DNA of 64,000 bases from Deltaproteobacteria bacterium (GCA_033763315.1 JANRKS010000040.1:192001-256000); one strand, 5' to 3'. Numbered from the stretch's first letter, positions 36,790 to 63,425 are shown. The notes: a model not told the origin generated them from the letters alone. Translations and numbers: made by a program.

Positions 36790-36791
36790 TC

Positions 36792-38222: not shown

Positions 38223-38229
38223 GTCAGCC

Positions 38230-40301: not shown

Positions 40302-40304
40302 CCA

Positions 40305-43058: not shown

Positions 43059-43072
43059 GGATGAAGGCAACC

Positions 43073-43999: not shown

Positions 44000-44005
44000 G
44001 GAACC

Positions 44006-46171
44006 ATGAACCAGCCCACATCGCAACCCACATTGCCCCGCGTCTTCGAGTCGCAACCGCCCGCCACCCAAGCCGCCATCATGGTGGCTCAAGCGCGATC
44101 GCTATTGGCATTTGGTGAACCGGGAGCCGCGGCTCGTCTGTTGTCAGGCTCGATGCATTTGGCGCCGCATTCTGTGGATTTGCTGCAAACGTTGGCCGAT
44201 TGCTTTTTGGCGCAAAGCGATCTTGCTTCCGTGAAAGACACCATGGAGTACGCGCGGCGCTTGCATCCCGACGATGTAGACATCGCCGCGCGCATCGCGC
44301 TGTCGGCTCTCGCAGGCTTGCCGGCGAATGAGCCAGCGGTTCAAGCGCCGCCGATTCAGGCTCAAGCGCACAAACCCACCTGCGTTTTCATCAACACCTA
44401 CTACCCCGCCTTTCTCGCGTCCTTCCGCGCACGTCAGCCAGGCTTGGCAAATGCGCCTTACGAAAAGCAGAAGGCAGACCTGCTTGGCACCTGCTTTGGT
44501 GACAGTGACTTCTATTCTTCGGGCCTGCGCAAAGCGGGCTGGATCGCAGACGAATTGGTGGTGAACGATGTGGACTTGGCCCAAGCATGGAGCCAAGCTC
44601 ATGGCTTCTCATTTACGCAACCGTTAGACGTCGCGGTGGAGCAGATCCGTCGCCTGCGTCCTGATGTTGTGTACCTGCAAGACCTGGGCATCGCCGACAC
44701 GGCTTTTGTGAGCCGCATTCGTCCCTACACGCAACTGATCGTGGGGCAGATTGCGTCGCCCATGCCACCGCAAACGGACTTGCGTGGCTTTGATCTAATC
44801 ATCACGTCTTTCCCCCACTTTGCAGATCGCTTGCGGCAAGCGGGCGTCACCGCGTATTACCAGCCGCTGGCCTTCTCACGTAAGGTCCTCGATCGTGCAA
44901 AGCCAGGCGCGCGGACGCGGCCGTTGACCTTCGTGGGAGGACTGTCGCCACAGCATCCGGCAGGCACCGAGCTGCTTAACAGGTTGGCGCAATCCACCAA
45001 CATTGAAATCTGGGGTTACGGCGCGGCGGCACTGCCACCCGACTCGGCCATTCGCGCCCGCCACCGCGGCGAAGCGTGGGGGGAGGATATGTTCCGCCTG
45101 CTGGCCGAATCACAAATCACCGTGAACCGGCATATCGCGGTGGCTGAGAACCACGCCAATAACATGCGCTTGTTTGAAGCCACGGGCTGCGGGGCTCTGC
45201 TGATCACTGATTACAAGGACAACCTGCAGGACCTGTTTGACATCGGAAAAGAAGTGGTGGCCTACCGCTCGCCACAAGAATGCGAGGCTTTGATTCAGTA
45301 TTACCAAGCGCACCCCGCGGAGGCGGAACAGATCGCAAAAGCCGGCCAAGCGCGCACCTGGCGAGACCACAGCTACGACGCGCGTCTGCAGGACACAGCG
45401 GCGATTCTGGAGCGTCACCTTCGCCACAAGCGTGAGGTGGATGCGTTTGCGGCCGTGGATCTCGGTGCCGTATCCACCGCCTATAGGGCCATGGACGCGG
45501 CCCACGTGACGCCAGCACTGATAGACGCGTGGAAAAACGAACAATTGCCACAACGACAGCGAGCCCTGGTGCACCGCGAGCTTGGCGAAATGTATAAAGG
45601 GCGGGATGTTGTGCCCTTCAAGGTTCTGGCCGACGCCCTCAATCCCGAGCTCGGTCGCATGCCTGCCGGCACCAAATCCCTATTAGAGATTGGTTGCGCC
45701 AGTGGGTACTACTTTGAAGTGCTGCGCTTTTTGTGCAAACAACCCATCGCCTATACAGGCGTCGACTATTCGCCGGCGATGATAGCGATGGCGAAGGACT
45801 ATTACCCGCAGGCGACGTTCAGTGTGGAAGATGGCGCCAAGCTGCCGTTTGCAGACCGCAGTTTTGACGTGGTTGTGTCGTCCTGCGTTTTGCTCCACGT
45901 GCCAAACTATCGTGAGCACATCCAAGAGACGGCGCGTGTGGCGCGCGACCTCGTGGTGGTGCACCGAACGCCGGTGTCGCGACGCCAACCGACCAAGCAC
46001 CTGCACAAGCAGGGCTATGGGGTGGATATGGTGGAGCTGCAGTTCAACGAGACTGAGCTAAACCAACTGTGGAACGCCGCGGGATTTACGCTGGTTTCAG
46101 GCATTCAGTACCACGCCGATGAAGCGGCTGACGAGTATGGCGTGACTTACGTCTACAAAAAGGTGGCGTGA
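44006..46171 (+). CDS. TPR-like + CgeB/GT-B glycosyltransferase + class I SAM methyltransferase fusion
   Basis: Helical N-terminus; NRHI...ANNMRLFEATGCGALLITD; LLEIGCASGYY, GVDYS, LPF.D.SFDVV. Confidence 0.85.
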   Translation: MNQPTSQPTLPRVFESQPPATQAAIMVAQARSLLAFGEPGAAARLLSGSMHLAPHSVDLLQTLADCFLAQSDLASVKDTMEYARRLHPDDVDIAARIALSALAGLPANEPAVQAPPIQAQAHKPTCVFINTYYPAFLASFRARQPGLANAPYEKQKADLLGTCFGDSDFYSSGLRKAGWIADELVVNDVDLAQAWSQAHGFSFTQPLDVAVEQIRRLRPDVVYLQDLGIADTAFVSRIRPYTQLIVGQIASPMPPQTDLRGFDLIITSFPHFADRLRQAGVTAYYQPLAFSRKVLDRAKPGARTRPLTFVGGLSPQHPAGTELLNRLAQSTNIEIWGYGAAALPPDSAIRARHRGEAWGEDMFRLLAESQITVNRHIAVAENHANNMRLFEATGCGALLITDYKDNLQDLFDIGKEVVAYRSPQECEALIQYYQAHPAEAEQIAKAGQARTWRDHSYDARLQDTAAILERHLRHKREVDAFAAVDLGAVSTAYRAMDAAHVTPALIDAWKNEQLPQRQRALVHRELGEMYKGRDVVPFKVLADALNPELGRMPAGTKSLLEIGCASGYYFEVLRFLCKQPIAYTGVDYSPAMIAMAKDYYPQATFSVEDGAKLPFADRSFDVVVSSCVLLHVPNYREHIQETARVARDLVVVHRTPVSRRQPTKHLHKQGYGVDMVELQFNETELNQLWNAAGFTLVSGIQYHADEAADEYGVTYVYKKVA

Positions 46172-47922
46172 TGGAAACCCGGCGAAGCTATTGTACGCAG
46201 TCGGACAGCAATTACCTCACGCGGGGCATTGCGCTGTGCGAATCGATGCAGCGCCATGAGAAACACCCGTACGTTATCTATTACGTATGCCTCGACGAAA
46301 TCACCCGCACAGTGCTTGAAGCGTTGCGGTTGCCCAATGTGATCCCCGTGCCTTTGCACGACGTGGAGCGTGGCAATGAGCCGCTGCGGGTGGCGCGCGG
46401 CAATCGCTCTCTGGTTGAATACTATTGGACGCTGACGGCCACCATCTTGGATTGGGTGATGGAGCAGCACCCCCAGATCCACACCCTCACTTACCTCGAC
46501 GCGGATCTATACTTCTATTCCTCTCCGGATCCGGTTTTTGAGGAGCTCAAGCAGGGATCCGTCGCCATCCATGAGCACCGGTTCTCGCCCGAACTCGCAC
46601 ACTTGGCGGTTGAGAACGGGCGCTTCAACGTGGGCCTTATGAGTTTTCGGCGCGACAGCAACGGCATGGCGGCGTTGCGCTGGTGGCGCGATCGCTGCCT
46701 TGAGTGGTGCTATGCCAAGCCCGAAGATGGCAAGCTAGGCGATCAAAAGTATCTGGAACAATTCCAAACACGTTTTAGTGGCGTGGTGGTGCTGCAACAC
46801 CTGGGCATCGCGTTGGCGCCCTGGAACCAATCGCAGTTCACGATTCAAAGCTCCCCGGGCACCACGCCCACAATCAACGGCCAGCCGCTGGTGTTTTTTC
46901 ACTTTCACGCCTTGGCCGTGCCAGATCCCGATGTGGTGATCGCAGCCAAACACGCCTATGTGGTGGGTGAGTCAGTGGTGCGCGCGTGTTACGTCCCCTA
47001 CTGTGAGGCGCTCGATCGGGCCGCCGCACGCATCAGGGGCGTTGCACCCAGCTCTTCTTTCGGCATGCACGAACCGGTGCCCGTCCGCGCTGAACACGCC
47101 CTGATCGTGAAGCAAGGCGCGCTCGGCGCCAAGCCGGGACTGGCGCCCATTGCCACGCAACGACGGCGGGTATCCATGGGTGCGTGGGACGCCTATTTCC
47201 CTGATCCCGCCGCACGACCGGTGCACACCGAACAGGCTCATGACACCCAAGGCAGCGGCGACGAGTTGCTGCTGTCTTTGCATGGCTTGCTGATCACGCG
47301 CAAGGTTGAGACATTGGTGTTCGCGGGGGCACATCTGTTTCAAGAAGCCTCGTTGCTGTTCACGTTGCTGCCGAAGCTCAAACGGGTTTACCTGTTTGAG
47401 CCGCTGCCTCAGCTCTTCGCCAAGCTCAAGCAATGGGAAGTGCGCGATCCGCGCGTGCGGGTGTTTCCTTATGCGCTCAGCGACGGCGACGGGCAGGCCA
47501 CCTTTCACGTCACCAACAACGACGCGCAATCCAGCTCGCTGCTGCCGTTGGCGAAGCACACGGAGATCTTCCCCGAAGTGGTTGAAGTGGAGAAGATCAC
47601 CGTGGAGCGAAAAACACTGGCCAGTGTGATGGCTTTTCATGATCTTGCGCCGCCAGATATGCTGTTTATCGACACGCAGGGCGCCGAGTACCAAATCCTG
47701 TCGTCGTTGTCTCAAGATCTCTTGCGTGGGGTGTCCCTCATCTACACGGAGGTGAGCACGGAAGAGCTCTATGCCGGAGGCCGCACCTTGGATGACATCA
47801 AAGCCTTGCTGGCACCCGAATTCGTGTTCGTGGCGTTTGCGCCGTTGTTTCCTCACACCCCTACGCACGGAAACGCGCTGTTTGTGAATCAAAATGCGAC
47901 GTGGCTGCTCAAGCAGGGCTAA
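46168..47922 (+). CDS. GT-A glycosyltransferase + FkbM methyltransferase fusion
   Basis: YLDADLYFYS, FNVG, GDQKYL, FFHFH; then GAH, FEP, SSSLL, IDTQGAEYQIL, YTEVS..ELY.G. Confidence 0.82.
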   Translation: MMETRRSYCTQSDSNYLTRGIALCESMQRHEKHPYVIYYVCLDEITRTVLEALRLPNVIPVPLHDVERGNEPLRVARGNRSLVEYYWTLTATILDWVMEQHPQIHTLTYLDADLYFYSSPDPVFEELKQGSVAIHEHRFSPELAHLAVENGRFNVGLMSFRRDSNGMAALRWWRDRCLEWCYAKPEDGKLGDQKYLEQFQTRFSGVVVLQHLGIALAPWNQSQFTIQSSPGTTPTINGQPLVFFHFHALAVPDPDVVIAAKHAYVVGESVVRACYVPYCEALDRAAARIRGVAPSSSFGMHEPVPVRAEHALIVKQGALGAKPGLAPIATQRRRVSMGAWDAYFPDPAARPVHTEQAHDTQGSGDELLLSLHGLLITRKVETLVFAGAHLFQEASLLFTLLPKLKRVYLFEPLPQLFAKLKQWEVRDPRVRVFPYALSDGDGQATFHVTNNDAQSSSLLPLAKHTEIFPEVVEVEKITVERKTLASVMAFHDLAPPDMLFIDTQGAEYQILSSLSQDLLRGVSLIYTEVSTEELYAGGRTLDDIKALLAPEFVFVAFAPLFPHTPTHGNALFVNQNATWLLKQG

Positions 47923-49679
47923 GGGCTGTTGGCAAACGCATAGAGGCGCACAAACAGCCCCGTCAAACTTGTGGGCACTCGCTCTCCGTGCCACGTTTGC
48001 AGGAGTCGACGCATATGCGTTTTGATGAGCGCCAGCTCCTCGGCTTCCGTGGTCAAACGAAACGCCTCAGGATCCAGCAAAGGCAGCAACGAATCTGCCC
48101 CCTGCTCCACCACATCACTCAACAGATCGGCCTGCCGCAGCCGATCGGCGCGCTGGTATACATCAAGCCGAGCCTCGGCCGCGTGAGCGATGCTGCTTAA
48201 CTTGTGGCGACCGTAAACGCCAATCGGTGTGTGTTGCGGCAAGGGATAGCTTTGCCGCAAATCGAATAAGGACCGGTGATGGTCAAAGGCGTACCACCGA
48301 AACGCCTGCACGATCCGTTCGGCCCGCCAGCCGTCCGCCAGCGCGCTTTCAATCGCAGCAAAATAGTGTTCGCGGCTTTCGTCACCCACATAGTTGAGCT
48401 CCGGCGGATAGAACACCAGCTCCTTGGAATAGATGACCGCAGGAATCCCGAGCAGCGCCATCTCCTTGCCCGCGCTTGACCAGGCATTAAGAAAGACGTC
48501 CGTGATCTCTGCCAGATCGAAGATCGAAATCTCGTCTGTGGGCCAGTTAACCCGTACGTTGGCGGGAAGCGTGGCGAAGAGCTGTTTTAGCTTCGCAGCG
48601 TGCTGCGAAACGTTGCCGCGAAACTCACGCGGGTGCACCCGAATGATGAAGAACAAGTCGGGACGATCGGCGACGTATTCGATCACCGCTTGCACCCAAT
48701 CAGCTTGACGGTCAAAGAGCAACCGGCCTGAATAATCAGGCAGGGCATGCACAGCCTCGGCCGCAAACCGTTCATCGTAGCTGCTCATCGTTGCAACCAA
48801 CACGCTGGCGCCGCCCGGCACGCCGAAGCGTTCGCGCAGATCGCCCACATCTTTATTGCGCGCCGATGAATACGCCCAATGACCAATGCCTTGGATCAAG
48901 GTTAGGAAGTGATCCACCGTCTGCGAGATCTCATCGCCCCCCGCGGGAATGCCACTCCACCGGGGCCAGTCGGCAATCTGCTGGGCAAAAAAGTCAAACG
49001 TGTATCGGCGCGTGAGGAAGATGTATTGAATTCGATGCGCAAGATTGGCGCCGGCGTGCAGCGAATAGCAAGGAATGCCTTGCGATTCCACGTAGTGAAG
49101 GAAGATCTGGTTTACGGGGTAAAGCGCGTTGTAAATGATTACGCGCTCGGGCTTTTCCTGTGCCACCAGCTTCTTGGCCGCCGCCAAACCAAGCAGCGTG
49201 TTGAACAGCTCGATGCGGTAGATCGCCATCTCTTCGGCACTGAAATGCAGATCAATACGCTTCGTATCAAGCAGCAGTACATAAAGCGCCGTGCGACCCA
49301 CGGGCATGCCGTCAACGAAGTAATTCTCAACGCCCTCTTTCGGGCACGCTTCGAGCATCTCGTTGGCCCAGGTGACGTCGGCCTCGGTGATGACATCCGA
49401 GAGCCGGCAGCCCGGCAACGCCATATTTGTGCGCAGCAGTTCGCCTTGAAAATGGCAAAGCGCGCACACCCGCGATCGCACCTCAAGCGAACTGCCGTGC
49501 GGCGCGCTGTTGGCGTCCATGGCCTCGCAGTGGTTTTTCAACACCTCGCCGCACGTGACGTAACAAACGTCATGCCCCGACTTCATCAGAGATTCAGCGA
49601 GCACAGCTTCGGGAAACGCATGCACCCAAATCGCTGCGCGCGGGCTTAAAAACAGCACCTTTTTCTTACTTGTGCTCAC
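47919..49679 (-). CDS. Capsule polysaccharide biosynthesis (KpsS/KpsC-like) protein, candidate nonulosonate transferase
   Basis: LFDRQ.DW, IIRVHPRE, WSSAGKE..LLG.P; last gene of the pse operon; GTG 49679 with AGGAA upstream. Confidence 0.6.
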   Translation of the reverse strand: MSTSKKKVLFLSPRAAIWVHAFPEAVLAESLMKSGHDVCYVTCGEVLKNHCEAMDANSAPHGSSLEVRSRVCALCHFQGELLRTNMALPGCRLSDVITEADVTWANEMLEACPKEGVENYFVDGMPVGRTALYVLLLDTKRIDLHFSAEEMAIYRIELFNTLLGLAAAKKLVAQEKPERVIIYNALYPVNQIFLHYVESQGIPCYSLHAGANLAHRIQYIFLTRRYTFDFFAQQIADWPRWSGIPAGGDEISQTVDHFLTLIQGIGHWAYSSARNKDVGDLRERFGVPGGASVLVATMSSYDERFAAEAVHALPDYSGRLLFDRQADWVQAVIEYVADRPDLFFIIRVHPREFRGNVSQHAAKLKQLFATLPANVRVNWPTDEISIFDLAEITDVFLNAWSSAGKEMALLGIPAVIYSKELVFYPPELNYVGDESREHYFAAIESALADGWRAERIVQAFRWYAFDHHRSLFDLRQSYPLPQHTPIGVYGRHKLSSIAHAAEARLDVYQRADRLRQADLLSDVVEQGADSLLPLLDPEAFRLTTEAEELALIKTHMRRLLQTWHGERVPTSLTGLFVRLYAFANSP

Positions 49680-49687
49680 GGCGGTTC

Positions 49688-50743
49688 CTATTCCAGCATA
49701 TCCCAAGTCAATGCCGTGCCCCGCTTTAGCGCCCGCTTGAGCTTCCGCCCCAGCACCTGCTCGAAGTGTTTGGGGGCCATGGCGAACCCCGGACGAATGA
49801 CACGCAAGTTCTGGCGCGTGAGCGGCTCACCCGCGGCCACGTCAGCAACAACATAAAGCGACCGCCGAAACACGCGCGATCCCGCTTCGGCCTTCAATGT
49901 GCCGTACCTCACCTCACCCAACGCCTGCCAGGCACGTTCGGTTTCCACCACCAACGACGCCATTTCAGCAGGCTCAAGCGAAAACGTGGAATCCACCCCG
50001 CCATCGCGCCTCGCCAGCGTGAAGTGCTTCTCCACCACGGTGGCCCCCAGCGCCACCGCCGCCACCGCCGCGCCCACACCCATGGTGTGATCCGAAAGAC
50101 CCACTTCCACATCGAACAACTGGCGCAAATGAGGAATCGTTCGCAGGTGCGAGTTCAGCGGTGTTGCTGGATAGGTGCTCGTGCATTTGAGCAAAATAAG
50201 GTCCCGGCAACCGCCCGCGCGAGCCGTGGTCACCATCTCTTCAAGTTCGGCCAAACTGGCCATGCCGGTGGAGATGATCATCGGCTTGCCCGTGCCAGCC
50301 ACCTTGCGGATCAAAGGCAGATCGGTGTTCTCGAACGAGGCAATCTTGTAGCAAGGCACCGCAAGCGATTCCAAGAAATCAACCGCCGTTTCGTCGAACG
50401 GGGTGGAGAAACACAGCATGTTGCGTTCAGCGGCCCGCGCAAAAAGTGCCGCGTGCCAATCCCATGGCGTGTGTGCTTCTTGGTAAAGCTCGTACAGGGA
50501 GCGCCCCGCCCACAGACTCTTCGGATCGTTGATGCGAAAATCGCCCTCATCAAGATCTATGGTCATCGTATCGGCGGTGTACGTTTGCAGCTTGATCGCA
50601 TGGGCACCCGCGTCGGCCGCGGCGTCTACGATGGCCAACGCCCGCTCAAGCGATTGGTTGTGGTTGCCCGACATTTCAGCGATCACAAACGGCGCGTGAG
50701 CGAGGCCCACGGCGCGCGACCCGATGTGCAAGGTTTTGCTCAT
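49688..50743 (-). CDS. pseI: Pseudaminic acid synthase
   Basis: IAEMSGNHNQSLERA, KLQTYTADTMT, YKIASFE, GLSDHTMG, EKHFTL.R.DGGVDS.FSLEP, C-terminal SAF domain; start 50743. Confidence 0.93.
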   Translation of the reverse strand: MSKTLHIGSRAVGLAHAPFVIAEMSGNHNQSLERALAIVDAAADAGAHAIKLQTYTADTMTIDLDEGDFRINDPKSLWAGRSLYELYQEAHTPWDWHAALFARAAERNMLCFSTPFDETAVDFLESLAVPCYKIASFENTDLPLIRKVAGTGKPMIISTGMASLAELEEMVTTARAGGCRDLILLKCTSTYPATPLNSHLRTIPHLRQLFDVEVGLSDHTMGVGAAVAAVALGATVVEKHFTLARRDGGVDSTFSLEPAEMASLVVETERAWQALGEVRYGTLKAEAGSRVFRRSLYVVADVAAGEPLTRQNLRVIRPGFAMAPKHFEQVLGRKLKRALKRGTALTWDMLE

Positions 50744-51462
50744 GCTTTCCCCGTGTTCTCCAAATGGCGCCCCACCATGAATGCTTCGGCCGCCTCCATG
50801 CCCACAGAAGCGCCCCGCCATAGGGCAAGATGGGTCACGGCTTCAATCGATCGCGCGTGTGGCCAGGCACGCATCTCGCTGCTGTAGCACCGTAAGGCCT
50901 CTTGCTTGCGTGGCAAGGTGGCGCCAACGTCCACAAACCACGTGGGCACAAATGGTGCGCTCGCAGGATTCCATTCGGTGCTCGACGGCACTTCAAAGAA
51001 CAGCAAGGTTTGCACAAAGAAGCCCGGCTGCGGGCGGCAAGCCGTCACCACTGCGTTGTGCACGCACGCGTGATCCACATTGAGATCCGATCGATTGTGC
51101 GTGTAAACCACCGCGGGCCGGTGCGTGGCTAAAAATGCTTCCACCACTTTAACAACGTCGAGAAGCGCCACAGTGTCCATGCGGTTGTCGGGAAAGTCGT
51201 GCAACACCAACGATGACGTTCCCAACACAGCATGCGCGGCTTCGGCCGCCTGCCGCAGTTGAGAAAGGCCGCTTTTGTGCGCCCCCACGTCGCGCGTGGG
51301 ATCTCGGCTCGTCAGCCCTTCCGCCAAAATGAGCACCGCCACGGTATCGCCCTCGGCAACGTGGCGAGCGATCACGCCGCCGCACCCCAACACTTCGTCA
51401 TCGGGGTGTGCCGCGATCACAGCCACGCGGCGAGGGCCTTTGTTGTTGACGATGGAGCTCAT
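50740..51462 (-). CDS. PIG-L/LmbE family N-deacetylase
   Basis: AAHPDDEVLGCGG, FPDNRMD, DLNVDH, FEVPSSTEW; start at 51462 or 51486. Confidence 0.9.
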   Translation of the reverse strand: MSSIVNNKGPRRVAVIAAHPDDEVLGCGGVIARHVAEGDTVAVLILAEGLTSRDPTRDVGAHKSGLSQLRQAAEAAHAVLGTSSLVLHDFPDNRMDTVALLDVVKVVEAFLATHRPAVVYTHNRSDLNVDHACVHNAVVTACRPQPGFFVQTLLFFEVPSSTEWNPASAPFVPTWFVDVGATLPRKQEALRCYSSEMRAWPHARSIEAVTHLALWRGASVGMEAAEAFMVGRHLENTGKA

Positions 51463-51482
51463 GAAAATCTGTGCCTTTGCCT

Positions 51483-52172
51483 TCAAGAGCCTTTGGGTTT
51501 GGGCACCACGCGCACCTGTGCCGTCAGCGATTCGCCCTGCAGGCTGGCATGGCTGAACTCGAACCTCAAGAATTCCGTTTCGATGAACGCCGCTGGATAC
51601 CCCGGGGCGTCCAACATGCGTATGAAGTCGTACGCGGCGTCAATCGATGTGACTTGCGCCATTTCACTTTCGTGCGGCCTGCGCCGGGCGAACGCCACGG
51701 CCTCTCCGGTTTGCGGCATCGGTGTTGGCCTCGTCGCCACAATTTCCGCAATCATGTCCTCGATGAGATGGGTGCCGCGGATGTAGATCTCTTCCGCGCG
51801 CCCCGCAAGCGAAAGCGGCCGCTTGAGGTAGACAGGCCCTGTATCGAGCCCCGCCTCACAGCGCAGCGCCGTCATCTGAGTGTCCTGCACGCCACGCACC
51901 AACAGGTTCTGCAGGGGGCTGCCGCCGCGGCCAAACGGCACGTCGGTCATGTGGAAGATCACGCACGTAAACGTGTCAAACACGCTGGCGGGGATCCGAT
52001 GAGACCAGTGCGGAAAGAACACCCAGTCGGGCGCGAACGCCTTCAGCGCCTCCGCGGTGAGCTGTTCGGGAGCGGTGATGTGCCTTGTGACGGCGCCGCA
52101 CCTGGCAGCCACGCGCTCGGCAAGGCCGGGCACCCAATCCCTCGAAGTGGCGATGACGATCCGTGGCTTCAT
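51483..52172 (-). CDS. Formyltransferase (Fmt-like)
   Basis: FFPHWS, VIFHMTDVPFGRGGSPLQNL, LDTGPVY, YDFIRMLDA.GYP.AF. Confidence 0.88.
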   Translation of the reverse strand: MKPRIVIATSRDWVPGLAERVAARCGAVTRHITAPEQLTAEALKAFAPDWVFFPHWSHRIPASVFDTFTCVIFHMTDVPFGRGGSPLQNLLVRGVQDTQMTALRCEAGLDTGPVYLKRPLSLAGRAEEIYIRGTHLIEDMIAEIVATRPTPMPQTGEAVAFARRRPHESEMAQVTSIDAAYDFIRMLDAPGYPAAFIETEFLRFEFSHASLQGESLTAQVRVVPKPKGS

Positions 52173-53902
52173 GACGACCGCCGGTCCTTCTCAATACGCA
52201 ACACGTACCGCACACCGTGGTGATCGAAGAACGCAGGATAGGCGTCGTTGTCCACCACCCGCAGCAAGTTGAATTGTTCAGCCAACGTGAGCGCAGGATC
52301 GAGGCGGCTGTCTTCGGCGCGCCTTCGGGGATAGGTGCTTGGGGTGCCCCTTTGCTCGCACGCCGTTTGTACAGCCTCGGGGTAATTCTGCACCCACCAC
52401 TGGCACAGGCGCAACGTAGCCTCGGCTTGCAAGGCGCGCAACTCATCGACCAGCTCATGACCTTGCAGCTGCATTTGGGTCTGCGCATAGATCGGCCCGC
52501 TGTCCACGCTGAGCTGTGCCTCGAACAAAGTTACGGGTATGCAAGCCTTGCCCTCAAGAACTTGCCACGTCATCGGTGACCAGCCACGGCCGCGTGGCAG
52601 ATCACTTTCATGCACCACCACATTGTGCACGTTTCGCGCAAGAATCGCCGCGCCAGCCAGCTGGCCGCAACTCAAGAACAGCGCACAATCGCCCATCCCC
52701 AGCGCGTTGACTTGATGCACCCACGTCACCTCGTGGCCAGCCGCCTTCCACCCATCAAGCAAAGGTGGCAGAAAGCGGTTAAGCCAGCTGTGCTCATCGG
52801 AAACAACGTTTAAGCGGAGGCGACGATCAAGCGCCGCCGCCGCGCGCGCGGCGCCCTGCCCGTCGACCAGACGCTGGCCTCGTTGCGACAGGCGCGCAAG
52901 CAACGAGGGCCGCGCCAGCATTCGCGCGATGGCCGAGGCCACAGCGTCAATGGTCAGAGCCTCCGCGTTCCCCAAAAACCACGCAAACCGTTCGGCACCC
53001 GCGCCCTTGCCAATCTCTATCTGGTTGTGGGCGATCGCAATCAGGATCGCAGGCAGCCCCAAACAGCACCGTTCCCACGTGGAGATGCCTGGGGCGCCAA
53101 TCATAAGATCCGCTGCCTGCATCAACGCCGCCATCTGGTCCGTCTGCACGTGAAGTTGCGCACGGGGCAAAGCCGCGCACAAGCGCGCCACCTCTTCCGC
53201 CTGCGGGTGGCTCTTGCCGATCACCACATCGATGTGAAGGTTCTCGCTCGCCACACGCTGCAGGGCCTGCAGCACCAAGCCAGTGACGTTGTGTGGATCG
53301 CCCCCGCCCAGGCTCACCAGCAAGCGACGCGCACTTACGGCTGGGTGTGGCCACAGGCGCGGCTTTTGGCGCCGCAGCTCGAGAAACGCGGGCCGCAACA
53401 GTGCAAAACGTGGCCCCAGCAACAGCCGACAATTCGTGGGCACAAGGCCCTCGTAACGGCGGGGTTGCAACTGCAAATTGGCGTCCAGCAGAACATCGGC
53501 GTCGTGAGGGCGATCGGCCAAATCGTCGATCACAGCCACTTGCTGCGCAAAGGCACGCAGGTTCCGCTCAGCACGCGCGTCGAGCGCGTAGTGATCCACC
53601 ACCGCCCAATCCCAGCTTGACAAGGACCCAAGCGCAGCGTTGACCTGTTGCACTTCTTCGTCGAGGCTCGCGCCTAACCAGCGTGCGTGTCGTGGCCCCG
53701 CCGCCGTCGGATTGCCCAAAGGCAAAGCAATCACTTCAAACCCTTGCGCCTTCACATGCTCGGAAAAGTGCCCAGGATGCAGCCGCGACAGAAACACAAC
53801 TTGGGCACCGCGTGCCCGCAAAGCGGCTGCCAGCGCCAAGCAGCGCATGACGTGGCCAGAGCCAATCTCGGTCGAGGCGTCAGCCCTGACCAAAACCCTC
53901 AT
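52169..53902 (-). CDS. pseG: PseG UDP-sugar hydrolase fused to a C-terminal formyltransferase domain
   Basis: RADAS.EIGSGHVMRCL.LA, VDHY, IDDLADR, LGGGD, G.STWERCCLGLP, DGQGA; then VHESDLPRGRGWSP, VDSGPIY, FNLLRVVDN..YPAFF. Confidence 0.88.
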   Translation of the reverse strand: MRVLVRADASTEIGSGHVMRCLALAAALRARGAQVVFLSRLHPGHFSEHVKAQGFEVIALPLGNPTAAGPRHARWLGASLDEEVQQVNAALGSLSSWDWAVVDHYALDARAERNLRAFAQQVAVIDDLADRPHDADVLLDANLQLQPRRYEGLVPTNCRLLLGPRFALLRPAFLELRRQKPRLWPHPAVSARRLLVSLGGGDPHNVTGLVLQALQRVASENLHIDVVIGKSHPQAEEVARLCAALPRAQLHVQTDQMAALMQAADLMIGAPGISTWERCCLGLPAILIAIAHNQIEIGKGAGAERFAWFLGNAEALTIDAVASAIARMLARPSLLARLSQRGQRLVDGQGAARAAAALDRRLRLNVVSDEHSWLNRFLPPLLDGWKAAGHEVTWVHQVNALGMGDCALFLSCGQLAGAAILARNVHNVVVHESDLPRGRGWSPMTWQVLEGKACIPVTLFEAQLSVDSGPIYAQTQMQLQGHELVDELRALQAEATLRLCQWWVQNYPEAVQTACEQRGTPSTYPRRRAEDSRLDPALTLAEQFNLLRVVDNDAYPAFFDHHGVRYVLRIEKDRRSS

Positions 53903-55059
53903 GCGCCGCTTTCCTTGATCGCCTCTTTTAAGGCTGCGATGCACACGTCTTGCTCGGCAAAAGACAACGACGCATAAAGCGGCATAGATATCGCCTCGGC
54001 ATAGTAGCGTTCCGCTTCAGGAAACATGCCGTCACGGAAGCCCAACGCCATAAAGTCAGGCTGCGTATGCACGGGGATGTAGTGCACATTCACGCCGATG
54101 TCAGCCGCGCGCAATGACTCGAAGATCTCTCGCCGCTGTGCCGCCGGCACGCGCACCACGAACAGATGCCACGAAGGGTCGGCATCGGAATGAACACCCT
54201 GCACGTGCACAAGGGTGTGTGCCAGGGCGGCGCGATAGCGTTCCACCAACACGCGGCGGCGGGTCACGAATGTTTGCAGCCGGTGCATTTGGCTTGCGCC
54301 CAACGCCGCCTGGATGTCGGTCATGCGGTAGTTGAAGCCAAGCTCAACCTGCTGGTAATACCAAGGGCCATGCGACTCCCCCTGCATCAGCGCACGCTCG
54401 CGCGTGATGCCATGGGTTCGCAGCCGCAATAGGCGTTCGAACAACGCTTGGCTCTTCGTGACCACCACGCCGCCTTCGCCCGTGGTCACGATCTTGACCG
54501 GATGAAAGCTGAAGATGGTGGCATCGGAGTGATTGCAGTTGCCTACGGGTGCGCCCTTGTAACTCGCGCCAATGGCATGCGAAGCGTCTTCCAGCAAGCG
54601 AAAGCCGTAACGGTCTGCCAATGCGGCAAACTCGGCCATCGGGCAGGACTGCCCCGCGAAGTGCACGGGGATCACAAGCTTTGGCATCAGCCCGCCGCTG
54701 CGCTGCGTGCGTTCGAGCTTGTCCGCCAAGGCGGCCACGCTCATATTCAAGGTTGCTGGATCAATATCCACGAAGTCCACACGTGCGCCGCAGTAGCGCG
54801 CGCAGTTGGCGCTCGCCACAAACGTATTGGGCGACGTCCACACCATATCCCCTGGCCCCACGTCCATCGCCAAACAAGCCAAATGCAAGGCCGCGGTGGC
54901 AGAGCTCACGGCCACGGCGAAAGGCACCGCGGCGGCCTGCGCCACAGCCGTCTCAAAACGCGCGATCGCTGGACCCTGCGTAAGCCAATCCGAACGCAAC
55001 ACCGCCTCCACGGCTTCAATGTCGTCGTCATCAATGGACTGGCGTCCGTACGGGATCAT
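53899..55059 (-). CDS. pseC: UDP-4-amino-4,6-dideoxy-N-acetyl-beta-L-altrosamine transaminase
   Basis: MIPYGRQSI..DDI, LTQGP, SFHPVKIVTTGEGG, LGFNYRMTDIQAALG. Confidence 0.95.
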   Translation of the reverse strand: MIPYGRQSIDDDDIEAVEAVLRSDWLTQGPAIARFETAVAQAAAVPFAVAVSSATAALHLACLAMDVGPGDMVWTSPNTFVASANCARYCGARVDFVDIDPATLNMSVAALADKLERTQRSGGLMPKLVIPVHFAGQSCPMAEFAALADRYGFRLLEDASHAIGASYKGAPVGNCNHSDATIFSFHPVKIVTTGEGGVVVTKSQALFERLLRLRTHGITRERALMQGESHGPWYYQQVELGFNYRMTDIQAALGASQMHRLQTFVTRRRVLVERYRAALAHTLVHVQGVHSDADPSWHLFVVRVPAAQRREIFESLRAADIGVNVHYIPVHTQPDFMALGFRDGMFPEAERYYAEAISMPLYASLSFAEQDVCIAALKEAIKESGA

Positions 55060-56054
55060 AGGGCGGATCCGTTAAACTCTTTCAGCTCAGCGGTGGTCAA
55101 GAAGTGCGGGTTCGTATCGGAGGCATATTTGAAGCCTTCGTCCACGGGCTTGCCACTTTCACCTAGGGCATTGGTGGAAAACTCCGTGACGTTTGCCAGC
55201 TGCAGCGTGGGAGCGATGACGAAGTGATCTGCAAACTCATACGTGTGTGTGCTGTCGTCGCGGGAGATCATCGTCTCATGCAGCTTTTCACCGGGACGAA
55301 TGCCGATCACACGGTGAGGCATCCCAGGAGCGATTGCCTCCACCAAATCCAAGATGCGCACGGAAGGAATTTTCGGCACGAAGATCTCGCCGCGCCGCAT
55401 GCGTTGAAAATTCTTTAGAACGAAATCTACGCCGACCTGCAGCTTCAGCCAAAAGCGGGTCATGCGTGGATCAGTCACCGGCAGGACTGTGGCGCCTTCG
55501 GCAACCAAGCGCTTGAAGAACGGCACCACCGACCCGCGCGAGCCCACGACGTTGCCATACCGAACCACGGCAAAACGCGTGCGGTGCGTGCCAACGATGT
55601 TGTTGGCCGCCACAAACAACTTATCGGAAAGCAGCTTGGTGGCCCCGTAAAGGTTGATAGGGCTTGAGGCTTTGTCGGTGGATAGGGCGATCACCTTCTC
55701 AACACCGTTTTCGATGGCCGCGGCGATCACGTTTTCAGCACCCGAAACGTTGGTACGAATAAACTCGGTGGGATTGTATTCAGCCGCCGGCACTTGTTTG
55801 AGCGCGGCCGCGTGAACCACAAAATCGACGTCGCGCATGGCTTGGCGCAAGCGGGCGGCGTCGCGAACGTCACCCAAGAAGTAACGCATACAAGGTGCAT
55901 TGAACTCCTGCGACATATCGAACTGTTTCAGCTCGTCGCGCGAGAACACCACCACGCGCCGGGGCTTGTAGCGTTGCAAAATGGTGCGAATGAATTTTTG
56001 ACCAAAGGATCCCGTGCCACCCGTGATCAAGATCGACTTCTCGTTAAGCATCAC
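55056..56054 (-). CDS. pseB: UDP-N-acetylglucosamine 4,6-dehydratase (inverting)
   Basis: ITGGTGSFG, SRDELKQ, HAAALKQVPAAEYNP, LYGATKL.SDK, RYGNVVGSRGSV, GIRPGEKLHE. Confidence 0.97.
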   Translation of the reverse strand: MMLNEKSILITGGTGSFGQKFIRTILQRYKPRRVVVFSRDELKQFDMSQEFNAPCMRYFLGDVRDAARLRQAMRDVDFVVHAAALKQVPAAEYNPTEFIRTNVSGAENVIAAAIENGVEKVIALSTDKASSPINLYGATKLLSDKLFVAANNIVGTHRTRFAVVRYGNVVGSRGSVVPFFKRLVAEGATVLPVTDPRMTRFWLKLQVGVDFVLKNFQRMRRGEIFVPKIPSVRILDLVEAIAPGMPHRVIGIRPGEKLHETMISRDDSTHTYEFADHFVIAPTLQLANVTEFSTNALGESGKPVDEGFKYASDTNPHFLTTAELKEFNGSAL

Positions 56055-56095
56055 ATCCCTACCTGTTGGTCAGTCTCGGCAACCCCGCCGCCCGT

Positions 56096-57223
56096 TCAAA
56101 CCTGGAAATCGCCTTCCAAATAGAAAACTGAATTAAACGTCTTCGCAAACAGCCGGTACCCCTGCGCTCGCATGAAGCCGTGCACGGTTGAACCCAACAC
56201 GGCTGCGACATCCGACTGCAAACACTCCACCACCACACACTGCGGGCGAAAGCGTTCCCAATCGTTTGATTCAAGTACCTTCAGGTCCAAGCCTTCCACG
56301 TCCACCGACATGAAGTGGATGGGCGCCCCAGGTACCAAGCACTGATCCAGGAGATCGGCCAGCGGCACCACATCCAGCTCGCGTGTTTGCACAACGTGGT
56401 ACGCCCCACTCTCGCGGCTACGGGTCAGCTCTTCATCGAACGAATTCAATGCGGGATCATTGAACATGTAATACGTGAGCTTGCCGTAGACGTTCGAAAC
56501 ACCGCAGGCAACGTTCACGTCCCCGGGCCGCACGGCAGCGAACGCCGCCATAAGTTCGGGGTTTGGCTCAATGTTTACGCCCCGCCAGCCTTGCAGATAG
56601 AACCGGTGCGTGTTCGAGAAGCGCAAGGGGTGATGCGCGCCCACGTCCACGTAAAGCCCCAACTTCTGCCGGTCGAATAGGCGCGCCAGAACAAGGTCCT
56701 CGCCCTCCTGGCTGTAAGACACGTTCATAAACTCTGTGTGGGGATGGCTCGTCACCGCGTGAGTTGGAACAGCTAAACGGGGACCACTGTAGATCAGAGG
56801 CTTATCGAGTAGGCCCAGACGTGACACGGCTTGCTCCGGTTGAGCCGCCAAAGCCGCCATCAGGCCCACCACCTGCACATCGAACGGATGACGACGCAAG
56901 AACGTTTGCACCACGTCTGACGCCCGTTCGGGTGCCCCCGCGTTCATGAAACACAACGCCAACAACGCCACGCTTACAGCGTTGTCAGGCTCCAGCTCTA
57001 GGGCCCGCGCCAGCGCAGCGGCCGCGGTATCAAAGTCAGGCGACCGAAGGATGGGTAGTTTACCGCCGGCCGCACGACACAACGACCACGCCAGACCGTG
57101 GTAGGCATGCACGTCGCGCTCGTTTTCTTTGCACGCCTGCAAGAACCGTTCGGCGGCTTTGGCATAGTCGTGCCGGGCCAGTAAGGCGCGCGCCTCAACC
57201 AGCGTGGGGGTTCGTGCAAGCAT
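56096..57223 (-). CDS. TPR + FkbM family methyltransferase
   Basis: TPR helices (ARALELEPDN); SYSQEGED, YVDVGAHHP..FSNT, SVDVEG.DL.VL.SNDW. Confidence 0.88.
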   Translation of the reverse strand: MLARTPTLVEARALLARHDYAKAAERFLQACKENERDVHAYHGLAWSLCRAAGGKLPILRSPDFDTAAAALARALELEPDNAVSVALLALCFMNAGAPERASDVVQTFLRRHPFDVQVVGLMAALAAQPEQAVSRLGLLDKPLIYSGPRLAVPTHAVTSHPHTEFMNVSYSQEGEDLVLARLFDRQKLGLYVDVGAHHPLRFSNTHRFYLQGWRGVNIEPNPELMAAFAAVRPGDVNVACGVSNVYGKLTYYMFNDPALNSFDEELTRSRESGAYHVVQTRELDVVPLADLLDQCLVPGAPIHFMSVDVEGLDLKVLESNDWERFRPQCVVVECLQSDVAAVLGSTVHGFMRAQGYRLFAKTFNSVFYLEGDFQV

Positions 57224-57340: not shown

Positions 57341-58255
57341 GTGAAGTCGAAACCAAAGACCATCACCGCCCCGGGCGCCGACTATTCCATTCGTGTTCTG
57401 GGCGCGCACAACTCCGCACTCCGCGATTTTTACCATGCCTTGCTGTTGTGGCGTTGGCCCACAACTGTGGTGGCGATCGCCGCCATGTTCATGCTGGCAA
57501 ACACGGTGTTCGCGTTTGCTTACATGCTGACCGACGGCGTGGCCAACGTTCACCCCGGTTCCTTTTTGGACTGCTTCTTCTTCAGCGTGCAGACGATGGG
57601 CACGATTGGTTACGGCTATATGTATCCGGCCACAACGACCGCCGAAGTGGTGGTGGTGGCGGAAACCATCACCAGCGTGACGCTCACAGCCTTGGCCACG
57701 GGCCTCGTGTTCGCAAAGTTCTCGCGCGCCAGCGCTCGTGTGTTGTTCAGCGATACGGTCACCATCAGCCCGATGAATGGCGTGCCCACGCTGCGTTTGC
57801 GCCTGGGCAACCAGCGTAACAACCAGATCATTGACGCCCGGGTGAAGGTGCAGCTGCTGCGCACGGAGAAGCTTAAGGAAGGTGGAGTGTTCTACCGCAT
57901 GGTGGACGTGAACCTCGTCCGTGAAAACATCCTCTCGCTGTCACGATCGTGGACCGCTTTGCACGTGATCGATGAATCAAGCCCGTTGTGGCAGGCTACC
58001 CCAGAGTCATTGGCCTCCGATGAAGCCGAGCTGCACGTGTTGTTGATGGGACTCGACGACACAACGTTGCAGCCCGTCCACGCTCTGCATCGGTATTTTT
58101 CGCAGCAGATCTTGTGGGGTCGGCAACACGTGGACATCCTCACGGAACGCGACAGCGGCGTGCTGGAGCTCGATCTGCGCCGCTTCCACGAACACGCGCC
58201 CACCGAGCCCACGCCCTCGTTTCCTTATCCAAAAACCGTATCAACAAAGCCTTAA
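57341..58255 (+). CDS. Inward rectifier potassium channel (KirBac family)
   Basis: DFYH.LL, FFFSVQTMGTIGYG filter, GLVFAKFSR, R.GNQR.NQI, W...HVIDESSPL. Confidence 0.93.
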   Translation: MKSKPKTITAPGADYSIRVLGAHNSALRDFYHALLLWRWPTTVVAIAAMFMLANTVFAFAYMLTDGVANVHPGSFLDCFFFSVQTMGTIGYGYMYPATTTAEVVVVAETITSVTLTALATGLVFAKFSRASARVLFSDTVTISPMNGVPTLRLRLGNQRNNQIIDARVKVQLLRTEKLKEGGVFYRMVDVNLVRENILSLSRSWTALHVIDESSPLWQATPESLASDEAELHVLLMGLDDTTLQPVHALHRYFSQQILWGRQHVDILTERDSGVLELDLRRFHEHAPTEPTPSFPYPKTVSTKP

Positions 58256-58385: not shown

Positions 58386-61300
58386 ATGCGTGGCTTTCGG
58401 TGTGTGGTGGTTTTTGCGGTGTTGGTGGGGACGGCCGCATGTACGGTCAAGGCAACGCCCACGGGCACACCAGGTCCTGTGGACGGTGGCCAGGTCGTAG
58501 AGGCCGGTGTTCCTGGTCGACCCGATCCGGTCGCGTGCGATCCGTCCGCCGTCCTCAAGGACGTGGCCGAATCATGCACGTGCAACGCAGAGTGCGGCAC
58601 CGGCCGTTGTGTGGATGGCGTGTGCTGCGCCAGCGCTTGCGACGGCCTGTGTGAGGCCTGCAATGTGCCCGGAAAAGTGGGGGCCTGCGCTCCCATCCCC
58701 GCCGGCCTGCCGCCCGTGGTGGCCGGTCAATGCAAAGTCGACGACGTCAGCACGTGCGGCTTTGATGGCACCTGCAATGGGAACCGCGGTTGCAGAAAAT
58801 ATCCCGAAGGCACCGCCTGTAAAAAAGGGATATGTGATGGAGCCACTGTAAAAGGCGAAAAGGTGTGCCGGCTTGGCCAATGCACTGTGGGCCCCGACAC
58901 CGTGTGCAGCCCCTTCGGTTGTGATCCTGCAAAATCGGCCTGCTTTGAGACGTGCACCGACGATGGGCAGTGCTCGGCTTCGCAAAAGTGTGCAAGCGGC
59001 AGTTGTGGCCTACGAAACATCGGCGCCAAGTGCGGTGGCAACACGGAGTGCGAATCAGGATTTTGCGCCGATGGCGTTTGCTGCAACACCGCGTGTGATG
59101 ACGCGTGCGTTACCTGCAACCAATTGTTGACCAAGGGCGAGTGCCGGCCGGTGATGGCCGAGCAACCCGATCCGCACAATGTCTGCAAAGACGAAGGCGC
59201 TGCCACATGCGGACAAAGCGGAAGCTGCGATGGTCAGGGTGGTTGCGCCAAATATAGCGCCTCCACACCTTGCCGCGCGGCACGCTGCGAAGGTGCAAAC
59301 GCGATTCCCGCCAGCACCTGTGATGGCAAAGGTTCCTGCCTGGCCGCCAGCCAAGTGGCTTGCGCCCCTTTCGCGTGTTCGGGCAACGCTTGCAAAACCA
59401 CGTGCAACGACGACACCGACTGTTCGGGCGCCGTCTGCATCAACAACAGCTGCGGGCTGCGTGGCAAGGGACAGAACTGCACGGCCGCTTCCCAGTGCGC
59501 TTCAGGTTTTTGTTCCGACGGCGTTTGCTGTGACAGTGCATGCACAGGGCAATGCAAGTATTGCGCTTCAGCGCAAGCGCGCGGCAGCTGCGTCAACGTG
59601 GCAGCCGACACCGCTGATCCGCGCGCCGCTGGCGCCAACCCATCAGCCGAGGCCTGCGTGGCTTCCGACCCGCGCACCTGTGGTCGAAATGGCATGTGCA
59701 ACGGCAATGGCGCCTGCCAGTTGTGGAACAAGAACACGATGTGCGAAGACCAGAGCTGCTCGGCCGCACAAAACACCTATTACGCGGCCAAAATGTGTGA
59801 CGGCGCAGGGTCGTGCAAACCTCAAGACAACGGCTCGCGCACCTGTTTTCCGAATAAGTGCAACGGCTCAGCGTGTGGCATTGCGTGTGGTTCATCAAAC
59901 GATTGCGTGGCGCCTAACGAATGCGTCAATGGGCGGTGTGGCCCCAAAGCGATCGGCGCCGTGTGTAGCGCCGACAACCAATGTGACAGCGGCTTTTGCC
60001 GCCAAGGCGTTTGCTGCCAAACCGACTGCAAAAGCAGTTGCTATTCATGTGCGCTGGCCAGCACCCGCGGCGTATGTTCGGCCGTACCCGCGGGCGAGCA
60101 GGATCCTGCGAAGGTGTGCACGGCCGATGGCGTGGCCAGCTGTGATCGCGATGGCATGTGCAACGGCTCGGGAGGGTGTCGCCTCTACGCCGCAGGGCAA
60201 GTGTGCGCGGGGGCCACGTGCGTGAACGGCACCGCGACCGGCGTTTCTAAGTGCGACGGCAAAGGCGAATGCCAAAAAGGCGCCGTGCGTGCGTGCGATG
60301 CCTATAAGTGCAATTCCGATGGCACCGCTTGCTTTGAATCCTGCACAGACAACAGCCAATGCGTCAGCCCGCGGGTGTGCGTGGGCACTTCGTGTGGCGC
60401 CAAACCAAACGGCGCCGAATGTCCGAATGGCGCGTCTGAATGCCAATCCGGGATATGCGTGCAGGGGGTGTGTTGCAACGAAGCTTGTGATGGTGTCTGC
60501 AAAACCTGCAAAGGCACAAAAGCGGGCACTTGCAGCAACGTGGCTCAAGGCGCAGCCGATCCCGCAGGCAGGTGTGCCCCTGCGGCGGGCGCGGCCGTGT
60601 GTGGCAACGATGGCACATGCAACGGCAACGGAGCCTGTGCGAAGGCGCCCAACACAGTTGTGTGCCGCAACCAAACCTGCCCCGCCGATTCAAACACCTT
60701 CACCCGATCGGCCAGATGTGACGGCGCCGGGAATTGCCCTGCACCCGCCACCGTGGATTGCGGCTCGATCAAATGCGACGCCACATCAAACGCATGCCTC
60801 ACGGGCTGCCAAAACGACGGCCAATGCGTCTCTGGAAACATCTGTGACGCGGCCACGATGTCGTGCGGAGGGCTCAAACCCAACGGCGCGGATTGCACGG
60901 CAAACCGCCAATGCGCGTCTGCGAAATGTGTAGAGGGCGTGTGTTGCGGCGGCTTGGCCGCGGACCAAAACGCTTGCCCCGCCTGTCAAAGTTGCAAGAT
61001 CGAAGGGCAAAAAGGCACCTGCCGAAGCGCGCCTGCGGGCGCGGCAAACGCGGGCGCGTGCCCCGCAGGCACGGGATTTTGTGGCGCGCAAACGTGCAAC
61101 GGGGCGGGCGCCTGCGTGCAGGCTAACCCGGCCGGCACGAGCTGCGGCGCACAAACGTGCGTTGACGGCAACAAGGTACAAAGCCAAACGTGTAACGCCA
61201 GCGGCATGTGCGTGAACGGTCAGCTCACCACGTGCGAACAGGGCTACCGCTGCGCCGACGGCAAGTGCAAGACCTCTTGCACCGTTGCCACTGCCAGCAC

Positions 61301-61883: not shown

Positions 61884-61954
61884 CCCCGCCGTGTGGTGAC
61901 AGTTCGATCCCCGCGCTGGCGAGTGCGGCGACTAAATGACGGGCAGGAGCAAAA

Positions 61955-61996
61955 GCGAAAAAGGCCTCGACGGCAAACACCGCGAGGCCCTTTCGT
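61955..61996. terminator. Probable bidirectional intrinsic terminator between the Cys-rich gene and eno
   Basis: cgaaaaaGGCCTCG...CGAGGCCctttcg inverted repeat with A-rich and T-rich flanks, between convergent genes. Confidence 0.7.
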
Positions 61997-62010
61997 TTCG
62001 TAAACGATCG

Positions 62011-63381
<1,371 letters not shown>

Positions 63382-63425
63382 TTACACGCTGACGAGGTGT
63401 CGAAGGCGTGGGATAATTGGACTTA

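Follow-up and report, generated by a model that had tools for sequence, protein, structure and literature searches.

A 64-kb stretch of the genome of a Deltaproteobacteria bacterium (GCA_033763315.1; C40:192001-256000, where C40 is contig JANRKS010000040.1), referred to here as the window, contains a compact pseudaminic acid (Pse) operon in which two formyltransferase-like units and a putative deacetylase lie among the core biosynthetic genes. From its gene content we propose that the operon directs the synthesis of pseudaminic acid with formyl instead of acetyl groups on its nitrogens, the simplest product being 5,7-di-N-formyl-pseudaminic acid (Pse5Fo7Fo), and we assign this reading a probability of about 0.5. 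The two units are FT-A, which is fused to the C-terminus of the UDP-sugar hydrolase PseG, and FT-B, a stand-alone protein encoded immediately downstream and followed by a PIG-L/LmbE-family protein. The more specific proposal, that FT-A and FT-B represent two families of nonulosonate N-formyltransferases distinct from PseJ that jointly make the di-formyl sugar, is offered tentatively. All coordinates count from the first letter of the window unless a contig is named.

The proposed pathway is as follows. PseB and PseC would convert UDP-N-acetylglucosamine (UDP-GlcNAc) to UDP-4-amino-4,6-dideoxy-beta-L-AltNAc, and FT-A, in the place of PseH, would formylate the C4 amine (the future N7) with N10-formyl-tetrahydrofolate (N10-formyl-THF) just before the fused PseG domain removes UDP. 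The PIG-L protein would remove the GlcNAc-derived 2-N-acetyl group (the future N5), and FT-B would formylate the amine so freed; this exchange could occur at the level of the UDP-sugar, the free hexose or the nonulosonate. PseI would condense the hexose with phosphoenolpyruvate to form the nonulosonate, and CMP activation would be provided by the SpsF-like cytidylyltransferase domain of a 693-amino acid (aa) protein encoded on a different contig, C7. Other genes of the same C7 block, for a GNAT and an aldo-keto reductase, may add further tailoring and the final sugar may be more elaborate; Pse5Fo7Fo is the most economical, but unproven, prediction.

Calling of open reading frames (ORFs), together with Pfam and NCBIfam profile scores, places the six genes of the operon at 49688–56054 on the minus strand, where an initial annotation made from the sequence alone had put them, within a tightly packed row of minus-strand genes that spans 47919–57223 (Table 1). 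The PseB, PseC, PseG and PseI steps are shown by family scores, as all four proteins exceed the cut-offs of their curated equivalog models. The initial description of the genes as joined mostly by ATGA overlaps is borne out by the junction sequences, with ATGA overlaps at PseB/PseC, PseC/PseG, PseG-FT-A/FT-B and PIG-L/PseI, and a TTGA overlap at FT-B/PIG-L. The longest ORFs for PseG::FT-A and PseI are 52169–53944 and 49688–50821, and from the junction overlaps the likely start of PseG is M15 of its longest ORF, at 53902, giving a fusion of 577 aa, and the likely start of PseI is 50743, giving 351 aa; we note that 577 aa is also the length of the closest homologues of the fusion. The formyltransferase domain, initially placed at about 52169–52830, coincides with the FT-A domain at 52172–52834.

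Both formyltransferase-like units look catalytically intact, as judged from alignments. H75 and D111 of FT-A, which align to the catalytic His and Asp of formyltransferases, are invariant among 39 sequences, H74 and D110 of FT-B are invariant among 37, and the Gly/Pro-rich loop after the His is invariant in both alignments. The AlphaFold2 model of FT-A (mean predicted local distance difference test score, pLDDT, 94.9) has as its best fold match the structure 1ZGH, with a template modeling (TM) score of 0.81 and a shared fold that includes the C-terminal subdomain, followed by the sugar 4-N-formyltransferases Rv3404c, VioF and WbkC, together with ArnA, at TM 0.69–0.74; HypX and 10-formyl-THF dehydrogenase are also good fold matches. 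By sequence, too, 1ZGH is the nearest solved relative of FT-A (E = 1.6e-8 with the single sequence, 8e-19 as a profile), and FT-B is a full-length relative of the same protein (E = 2e-63, 217 bits, residues 4–223). A complex prediction for the FT-A domain with FT-B, prompted by the existence of FT-A::FT-B fusions and made without control runs, gave a score of 0.00, which speaks neither for nor against an interaction.

Two sets of loci were compared with the operon, 36 selected by the presence of FT-A in a scan of named genomes and 33 selected by the presence of FT-B in a scan of metagenomes, one locus (L081) being a marginal match of 28%. The association of FT-B with the deacetylase is strict. 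PIG-L is present in all 14 FT-A-selected loci in which FT-B occurs, and in all 17 of the FT-B-selected loci with at least 1.5 kb of contig on both sides; the two genes occur together in 39 loci, no more than 300 bp apart in 33 of them, and FT-B was never seen without PIG-L among loci whose contig leaves room for it. One protein (P0149, 493 aa) has an FT-B-type domain (PF21553, aa 175–231) fused to a PIG-L domain (aa 245–362). PIG-L/LmbE-family enzymes deacetylate 2-acetamido sugars and bind metal through an AHPDDE motif, whose H-P-D-D-E residues are conserved in 95% or more of the sequences in a 46-member alignment that includes the window protein. Since FT-B is never found without PIG-L where there is room, the pattern fits FT-B acting on the product of the deacetylase. 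PIG-L occurs without FT-B in 8 of the 36 FT-A loci, a further 14 having neither, and by these co-occurrence, adjacency and fusion counts FT-B and the deacetylase form a fixed pair, with FT-A a separate unit. The pairing of a deacetylase with a formyltransferase in the initial annotation is thereby supported, although its assignment to N5 is less secure (see below).

The position occupied by FT-A is informative as to its role. Directly behind PseG there is a GNAT, an FT-A, both or neither, depending on the locus. The metagenomic locus L050 is a syntenic relative of the window that shares FT-B, PIG-L, PseI, a 595-aa ORF (47% identity), a glycosyltransferase-methyltransferase and FkbM genes, and has PseG::GNAT where the source genome has PseG::FT-A; in three other loci (L016, L020 and L021) the GNAT motifs have disappeared from the segment that separates PseG from FT-A. 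Twelve loci have FT-A as the sole extra gene, and canonical PseH is missing from 10 of these 12 genomes. Among all 36 FT-A genomes only two (L013 and L037) have a PseH above the cut-off, both belonging to the group with FT-A but no deacetylase, and the complete genome of a Neptuniibacter has no PseH match at E ≤ 1e-5.

The search for proteins with the PseG-plus-formyltransferase architecture returned at least 2744 relatives of the fusion at E ≤ 0.001 among 8000 candidates scored. Of the best 120, 67 are two-domain proteins of 546–616 aa and 53 are longer (678–747 aa) and contain an insert, 24 of the 53 having a GNAT Pfam match (PseG::GNAT::FT-A). The 36 FT-A loci include members of the Gammaproteobacteria, Verrucomicrobiota, Chlorobiaceae, Cyanobacteria, Actinomycetota, Myxococcota, Planctomycetales, Omnitrophota and Patescibacteria, as well as one archaeon. 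A search with FT-B at E ≤ 1e-30 gave 275 relatives among representatives at 50% identity. Of ten long FT-B relatives examined, one is FT-B::PIG-L and six have a GNAT, three of the six also having PseG. Pse genes are present at every one of the 68 FT-A or FT-B loci whose contig extends far enough. FT-A is present in 4 of 251 sampled genomes of the window's phylum, the source genome included, and as this sample was too poor in FT-A for a cross-tabulation of FT-A against PseH, the genomes of the 36 FT-A loci were used instead.

Several observations weigh against the proposed pathway, or against parts of it. First, the gene set is a widespread cluster type by its gene content, represented by about 70 loci from many phyla, and the initial view of a special rewiring of one operon is not sustained. 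Secondly, FT-A and GNATs are not mutually exclusive: a fused-type GNAT accompanies FT-A in 11 of the 36 FT-A loci, a GNAT of the type encoded on contig C7 in 7, and any GNAT in 17. By gene content many clusters thus hold more N-acyltransferases than there are amines, and FT-A is not always a substitute for PseH. The initial suggestion that FT-A replaces PseH therefore stands as regards its position behind PseG and its intact His and Asp, but is weakened by GNATs in 17 of the 36 loci and by canonical PseH in two. Thirdly, FT-A is absent from 12 of the 17 FT-B-selected loci with room on both sides (it is present in the other 5), and 8 of these 12 also have no GNAT on the contig; for example, L061 and L062 are arranged PseB-PseC-PseF-PseG-FT-B-PIG-L-PseI. 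The action of FT-B need not then be limited to N5. Fourthly, two proteins (P0133 and P0160) are FT-A::FT-B fusions, and in the FT-A half of P0160 a Gln aligns to the catalytic His and the stretch around the conserved Asp is also altered, with the motif kept in the FT-B half; these hint at joint rather than separate roles for FT-A and FT-B. Fifthly, FT-A and FT-B score below the 26.1-bit gathering cut-off of Pfam Formyl_trans_N (24.8 bits at aa 419–503 of the fusion, and 23.7 bits, respectively). The Asn of the N-x-H motif is part of the formyltransferase catalytic triad, and in the alignments this position (His-2) has Asn in Fmt chains, Val in FT-A and Ile in FT-B. We note that 10-formyl-THF dehydrogenase likewise has no Asn at His-2, and that FT-A has a near-invariant Asn at His-4. 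Finally, the source genome is 90.85% complete, so that a PseH or PseF gene could be missed, and it encodes a PseH-like GNAT outside the window.

The initial annotation described the operon as having no GNAT or PseH, and this holds for the window, where there is no PseH-like match. Genome-wide there are three matches to the PseH model TIGR03585, of 36, 33 and 32 bits at C40:6043, C16 and C7, all under the cut-off of 93, and a hidden Markov model (HMM) search of the genome's ORFs found no GNAT of the PseG-fused type (best 25.6 bits). PseF is absent from the operon, and the best match in the genome is 29.7 bits compared to a TIGR03584 cut-off of 205.7. The genome has only two CTP_transf_3 genes, on C7 and C21. 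The C7 gene lies in a block at C7:93224-96918 that encodes the PseH-like GNAT (235 aa), a fusion of an SpsF-like cytidylyltransferase domain (CTP_transf_3, 114 bits) to a class-III aminotransferase (693 aa), and an aldo-keto reductase (300 aa); genes for an XPB-like helicase and a Bax1-like nuclease are just upstream (C7:89732-92351). Homologues of all three C7 genes are found inside Pse clusters at many of the loci. In Rubritalea tangerina (L011) the order PseB-PseC-GNAT-reductase-cytidylyltransferase::aminotransferase-PseG::FT-A-FT-B-PIG-L-PseI is contiguous, and constitutes exactly the ten genes of the source genome. Because homologues of the C7 cytidylyltransferase hold the PseF position in L050, L025, L027, L033 and L035, it probably supplies CMP activation, and it is the only plausible candidate in the genome for this pathway. 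By these gene-content comparisons the Pse pathway of the source genome consists of the window operon plus the detached C7 block, and the statement that PseH is lacking is accordingly true of the canonical family only.

The C21 cytidylyltransferase was rejected as a source of PseF activity, as it is KdsB-like and lies in a separate ulosonate cluster. That cluster (C21:84528-91591) also encodes a split transketolase, a glutamate-1-semialdehyde-aminomutase-like aminotransferase, a short-chain dehydrogenase, a KdsC/KDN-9-P-phosphatase-like HAD protein, a NeuB-like synthase (310 aa) whose matches to the family models stop at about position 278 of 329, and an OlsE-like hydroxylase.

The C7 GNAT (C7:93224-93931) is the basis of the alternative that survives best, although we regard it as doubtful. 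In this scheme the C7 GNAT acetylates the C4 amine, depriving FT-A of the substrate proposed for it, and PIG-L and FT-B exchange one acetyl group for formyl to give a mono-formyl sugar such as Pse5Fo7Ac; FT-A could then formylate a further amine introduced by the C7 class-III aminotransferase, be redundant, so that a mixture of Pse forms results, or work together with FT-B. The best NCBIfam match of the C7 GNAT is indeed PseH, and homologues with 35–43% identity are present in the Pse clusters of L011, L021, L039, L041 and L066, where they adjoin PseC or the reductase, cytidylyltransferase and aminotransferase genes. In L011 and L041 they directly follow PseC and are the top PseH-like matches of their genomes, at 50–55 bits. 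The GNAT::FT-B and PseG::GNAT::FT-B proteins (6 of the ten long FT-B relatives examined) and the PseG::GNAT::FT-A proteins further indicate that GNATs and formyltransferase-like domains often function side by side, and the FT-A::FT-B fusions point in the same direction. However, the score of the C7 GNAT is far under the PseH cut-off, those of the L011 and L041 homologues also being below it, and the usual location of this type of GNAT, next to the cytidylyltransferase/aminotransferase cassette, suggests a function tied to that cassette. Moreover, L017 has both a C7-type and a fused-type GNAT, which are thus not of the same function, and canonical PseH is absent from the genomes of 10 of the 12 loci with FT-A alone.

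A second alternative to di-formylation is that the nitrogen exposed by the deacetylase remains unsubstituted, in part or completely, giving a sugar with one formamido group and one free amine, with FT-A and FT-B as alternatives for the same nitrogen. The CMP-nonulosonates described for Ca. Kuenenia (see below), with one free and one formylated amine, provide a precedent, genes for a deacetylase and a formyltransferase being present in the cluster, and the 8 FT-A loci with PIG-L but no FT-B are consistent with it. The window itself encodes Planctomycete-type PSD/PSCyt and DUF1552 proteins, which suggest a Planctomycete-like host, and Ca. Kuenenia belongs to the same phylum. We consider a free amine unlikely in the source organism, as FT-A and FT-B are both intact and translationally coupled in one operon, and the strict dependence of FT-B on PIG-L is best explained by use of the freed amine.

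About as improbable is the suggestion that the formyltransferase-like proteins are pseudo-enzymes, hydrolases, or transferases with a different donor or acceptor. The sub-threshold Formyl_trans_N scores, the lack of Asn at His-2 and the Gln replacing His in one FT-A::FT-B fusion are in its favor, as are the good fold matches to HypX and 10-formyl-THF dehydrogenase, where formyl groups go to thiols; no functional literature on the closest structure, 1ZGH, was found among the papers searched. Against this are the invariant His, Asp and Gly/Pro-rich loop in the two alignments, the presence of sugar 4-N-formyltransferases among the fold matches that follow 1ZGH, and the N-deacetylase partner, which makes an amine the obvious acceptor. 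The possibility raised by the initial annotation that these proteins act on a 3-amino-2,3,6-trideoxyhexose, whose NDP-hexose 2,3-dehydratase, GFO-type reductase and DegT aminotransferase are encoded at 36693–40301, 9.4 kb away on the other strand, is nearly excluded, since none of the 68 FT-A/FT-B loci contains a homologue (E ≤ 1e-10) of the dehydratase or of the reductase, Pse genes accompany the formyltransferase-like genes, and FT-A is fused to PseG.

Table 1. Features of the pseudaminic acid operon and flanking genes, in window coordinates.
Feature	Position	Strand	Basis
pseB, UDP-GlcNAc 4,6-dehydratase (inverting)	55056..56054	-	TIGR03589 544 bits, cut-off 408; PF02719 338 bits
pseC, aminotransferase forming UDP-4-amino-4,6-dideoxy-beta-L-AltNAc	53899..55059	-	TIGR03588 519 bits, cut-off 424; ATGA overlap with pseB
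PseG (UDP-sugar hydrolase) domain of the fusion	52835..53902	-	TIGR03590 302 bits, cut-off 154, aa 15-312; PDB 3HBM E 3e-12; ATGA overlap with pseC stop
FT-A, C-terminal formyltransferase-like unit fused to PseG (221 aa and stop codon)	52169..52834	-	H75/D111, fold, 1ZGH profile match
FT-B, stand-alone 229-aa formyltransferase-like protein, 1ZGH/PF21553 family	51483..52172	-	PF21553 72.5 bits, cut-off 27
Putative PIG-L/LmbE-family N-deacetylase	50740..51486	-	PF02585 88 bits, cut-off 28
pseI, pseudaminic acid synthase	49688..50743	-	TIGR03586 496 bits, cut-off 340; ATGA overlap with PIG-L stop
595-aa ORF, candidate glycosyltransferase	47919..49706	-	BFO_1060 family 28.6 bits, cut-off 200 (weak hint)
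TPR plus FkbM-type methyltransferase, 41 bp upstream of pseB	56096..57223	-	PF05050 70 bits plus TPR families
NDP-hexose 2,3-dehydratase, GFO-type reductase, DegT aminotransferase, family-2 glycosyltransferase	36693-41567	+	3-amino-2,3,6-trideoxyhexose genes

Homologues of the 595-aa ORF, a weak candidate for the glycosyltransferase that would use the Pse product, occur immediately downstream of pseI in L050 and, at 28% identity, close to the Pse genes of L030. The TPR/FkbM gene may belong to the same glycan locus, and homologues of other FkbM genes of the window lie beside the L050 Pse genes; several FkbM methyltransferases and a glycosyltransferase::methyltransferase fusion occupy 43061–47922, after the 3-amino-sugar genes. 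Adjoining the sugar locus, to the right, is a rightwards-transcribed gene (57341–58255) for a bacterial inward-rectifier-type potassium channel (IRK_C 86 bits, Ion_trans_2), followed on the same strand at 58386–63426 by two long ORFs of 1165 and 496 aa, neither having a Pfam match and the larger having no NCBIfam match either. Further to the left, at 30645–33727 on the plus strand, is a pair of proteins with Planctomycete-type DUF1587, DUF1595, DUF1592, DUF1588 and DUF1585 domains, then DUF1552. The genome also has two flagellin genes (C23:95916-97305).

Compared to the canonical CMP-Pse5Ac7Ac pathway of Campylobacter jejuni and Helicobacter pylori, in which the steps proceed in the order PseB-PseC-PseH-PseG-PseI-PseF (as given in PMC5109656 and PMC11040635), the source organism shares PseB, PseC, PseG and PseI equivalogs but differs in three respects. 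There is no PseH or PseF above the cut-offs in the operon or genome, two formyltransferase-like units and a deacetylase are inserted, and CMP activation would depend on a distant CTP_transf_3 domain that forms one protein with a class-III aminotransferase and is encoded on another contig. The PseG-GNAT ('PseG-PseH') fusions have the same architecture, with the N4-acylation enzyme behind PseG, and PseG::GNAT and PseG::GNAT::FT-A proteins are common relatives; the source protein differs in having FT-A directly after PseG and no GNAT. The fused GNATs of such proteins themselves score only 28–52 bits on the PseH model, for which the cut-off is 93.

PseJ (PDB 6CI2, 6CI4, 6CI5 and 6EDK), credited in PMC11040635 as the formyltransferase for Pse5Ac7Fo, belongs to the same superfamily as FT-A and has the same proposed job, formylation of the C4 amine in the place of PseH. 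Nonetheless, FT-A is a distant relative of PseJ and not its orthologue: the match of the FT-A profile to PseJ has E = 1.7e-7 (34 bits) and ranks about 23rd, after those to 1ZGH, ArnA, Fmt and VioF, and the single FT-A sequence matched no PseJ chain at E ≤ 10. The PseJ chains are 192–217 aa long, and the match ends at position 143 of the FT-A profile, before the C-terminal subdomain common to FT-A and 1ZGH. With the sugar 4-N-formyltransferases (Rv3404c, VioF, WbkC and WbtJ) and ArnA, FT-A shares the fold and the His/Asp pair, but identity is only 16–21%, the Asn is at His-4 rather than His-2, and the N-terminal half is shorter. The structure 1ZGH, labeled 'methionyl-tRNA formyltransferase' from Clostridium thermocellum (PF21553), represents a family of which FT-B is a full-length member and FT-A the nearest paralogue by both sequence and fold. 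Here and at about 70 loci, members of this family are found within Pse clusters and not beside translation genes; the label has the standing of an annotation rather than of an experimentally established function.

The legionaminic-type cluster of Ca. Kuenenia stuttgartiensis, like the source operon, has a deacetylase and a formyltransferase within a nonulosonate cluster, and the 2026 SugarBase preprint (10.64898/2026.04.20.719630) reports CMP-nonulosonates with one free and one formylated amine by mass spectrometry. That cluster is of the legionaminic type with one formyltransferase, whereas the source operon is of the Pse type with two, and the likeness is one of gene type.

Among the main texts of the openly available papers searched, we found no description of Pse5Fo7Fo, Pse5Fo7Ac, or di-N-formyl or diformamido pseudaminic acid, and no report of PseG-formyltransferase fusions or of the function of FT-A, FT-B or the 1ZGH family. 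The N-substituent routes named in the available portion of PMC11040635 are acetyl, acetamidino and PseJ-type formyl only, and a reference title in PMC7281560 lists Pseudoalteromonas distincta with a known Pse5Ac7Fo sugar. Formyl-Pse and the PseJ route are already known, and the source operon is a clean and intact copy of a widespread, predicted tailoring set. Pse coats flagella, capsules and lipopolysaccharides, and the groups on its nitrogens determine its charge and antigenicity and how phages and the immune system recognize it. Should the proposed functions be correct, FT-A alone, FT-A with the deacetylase, FT-B with the deacetylase, and all three together would constitute a simple code across the approximately 70 loci, spelling Pse5Ac7Fo, free-amine and formyl forms. 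Assignment of FT-A, FT-B and PIG-L would then allow the N-acyl pattern to be read from genomes, and would provide enzymes for making formyl and free-amine Pse derivatives.

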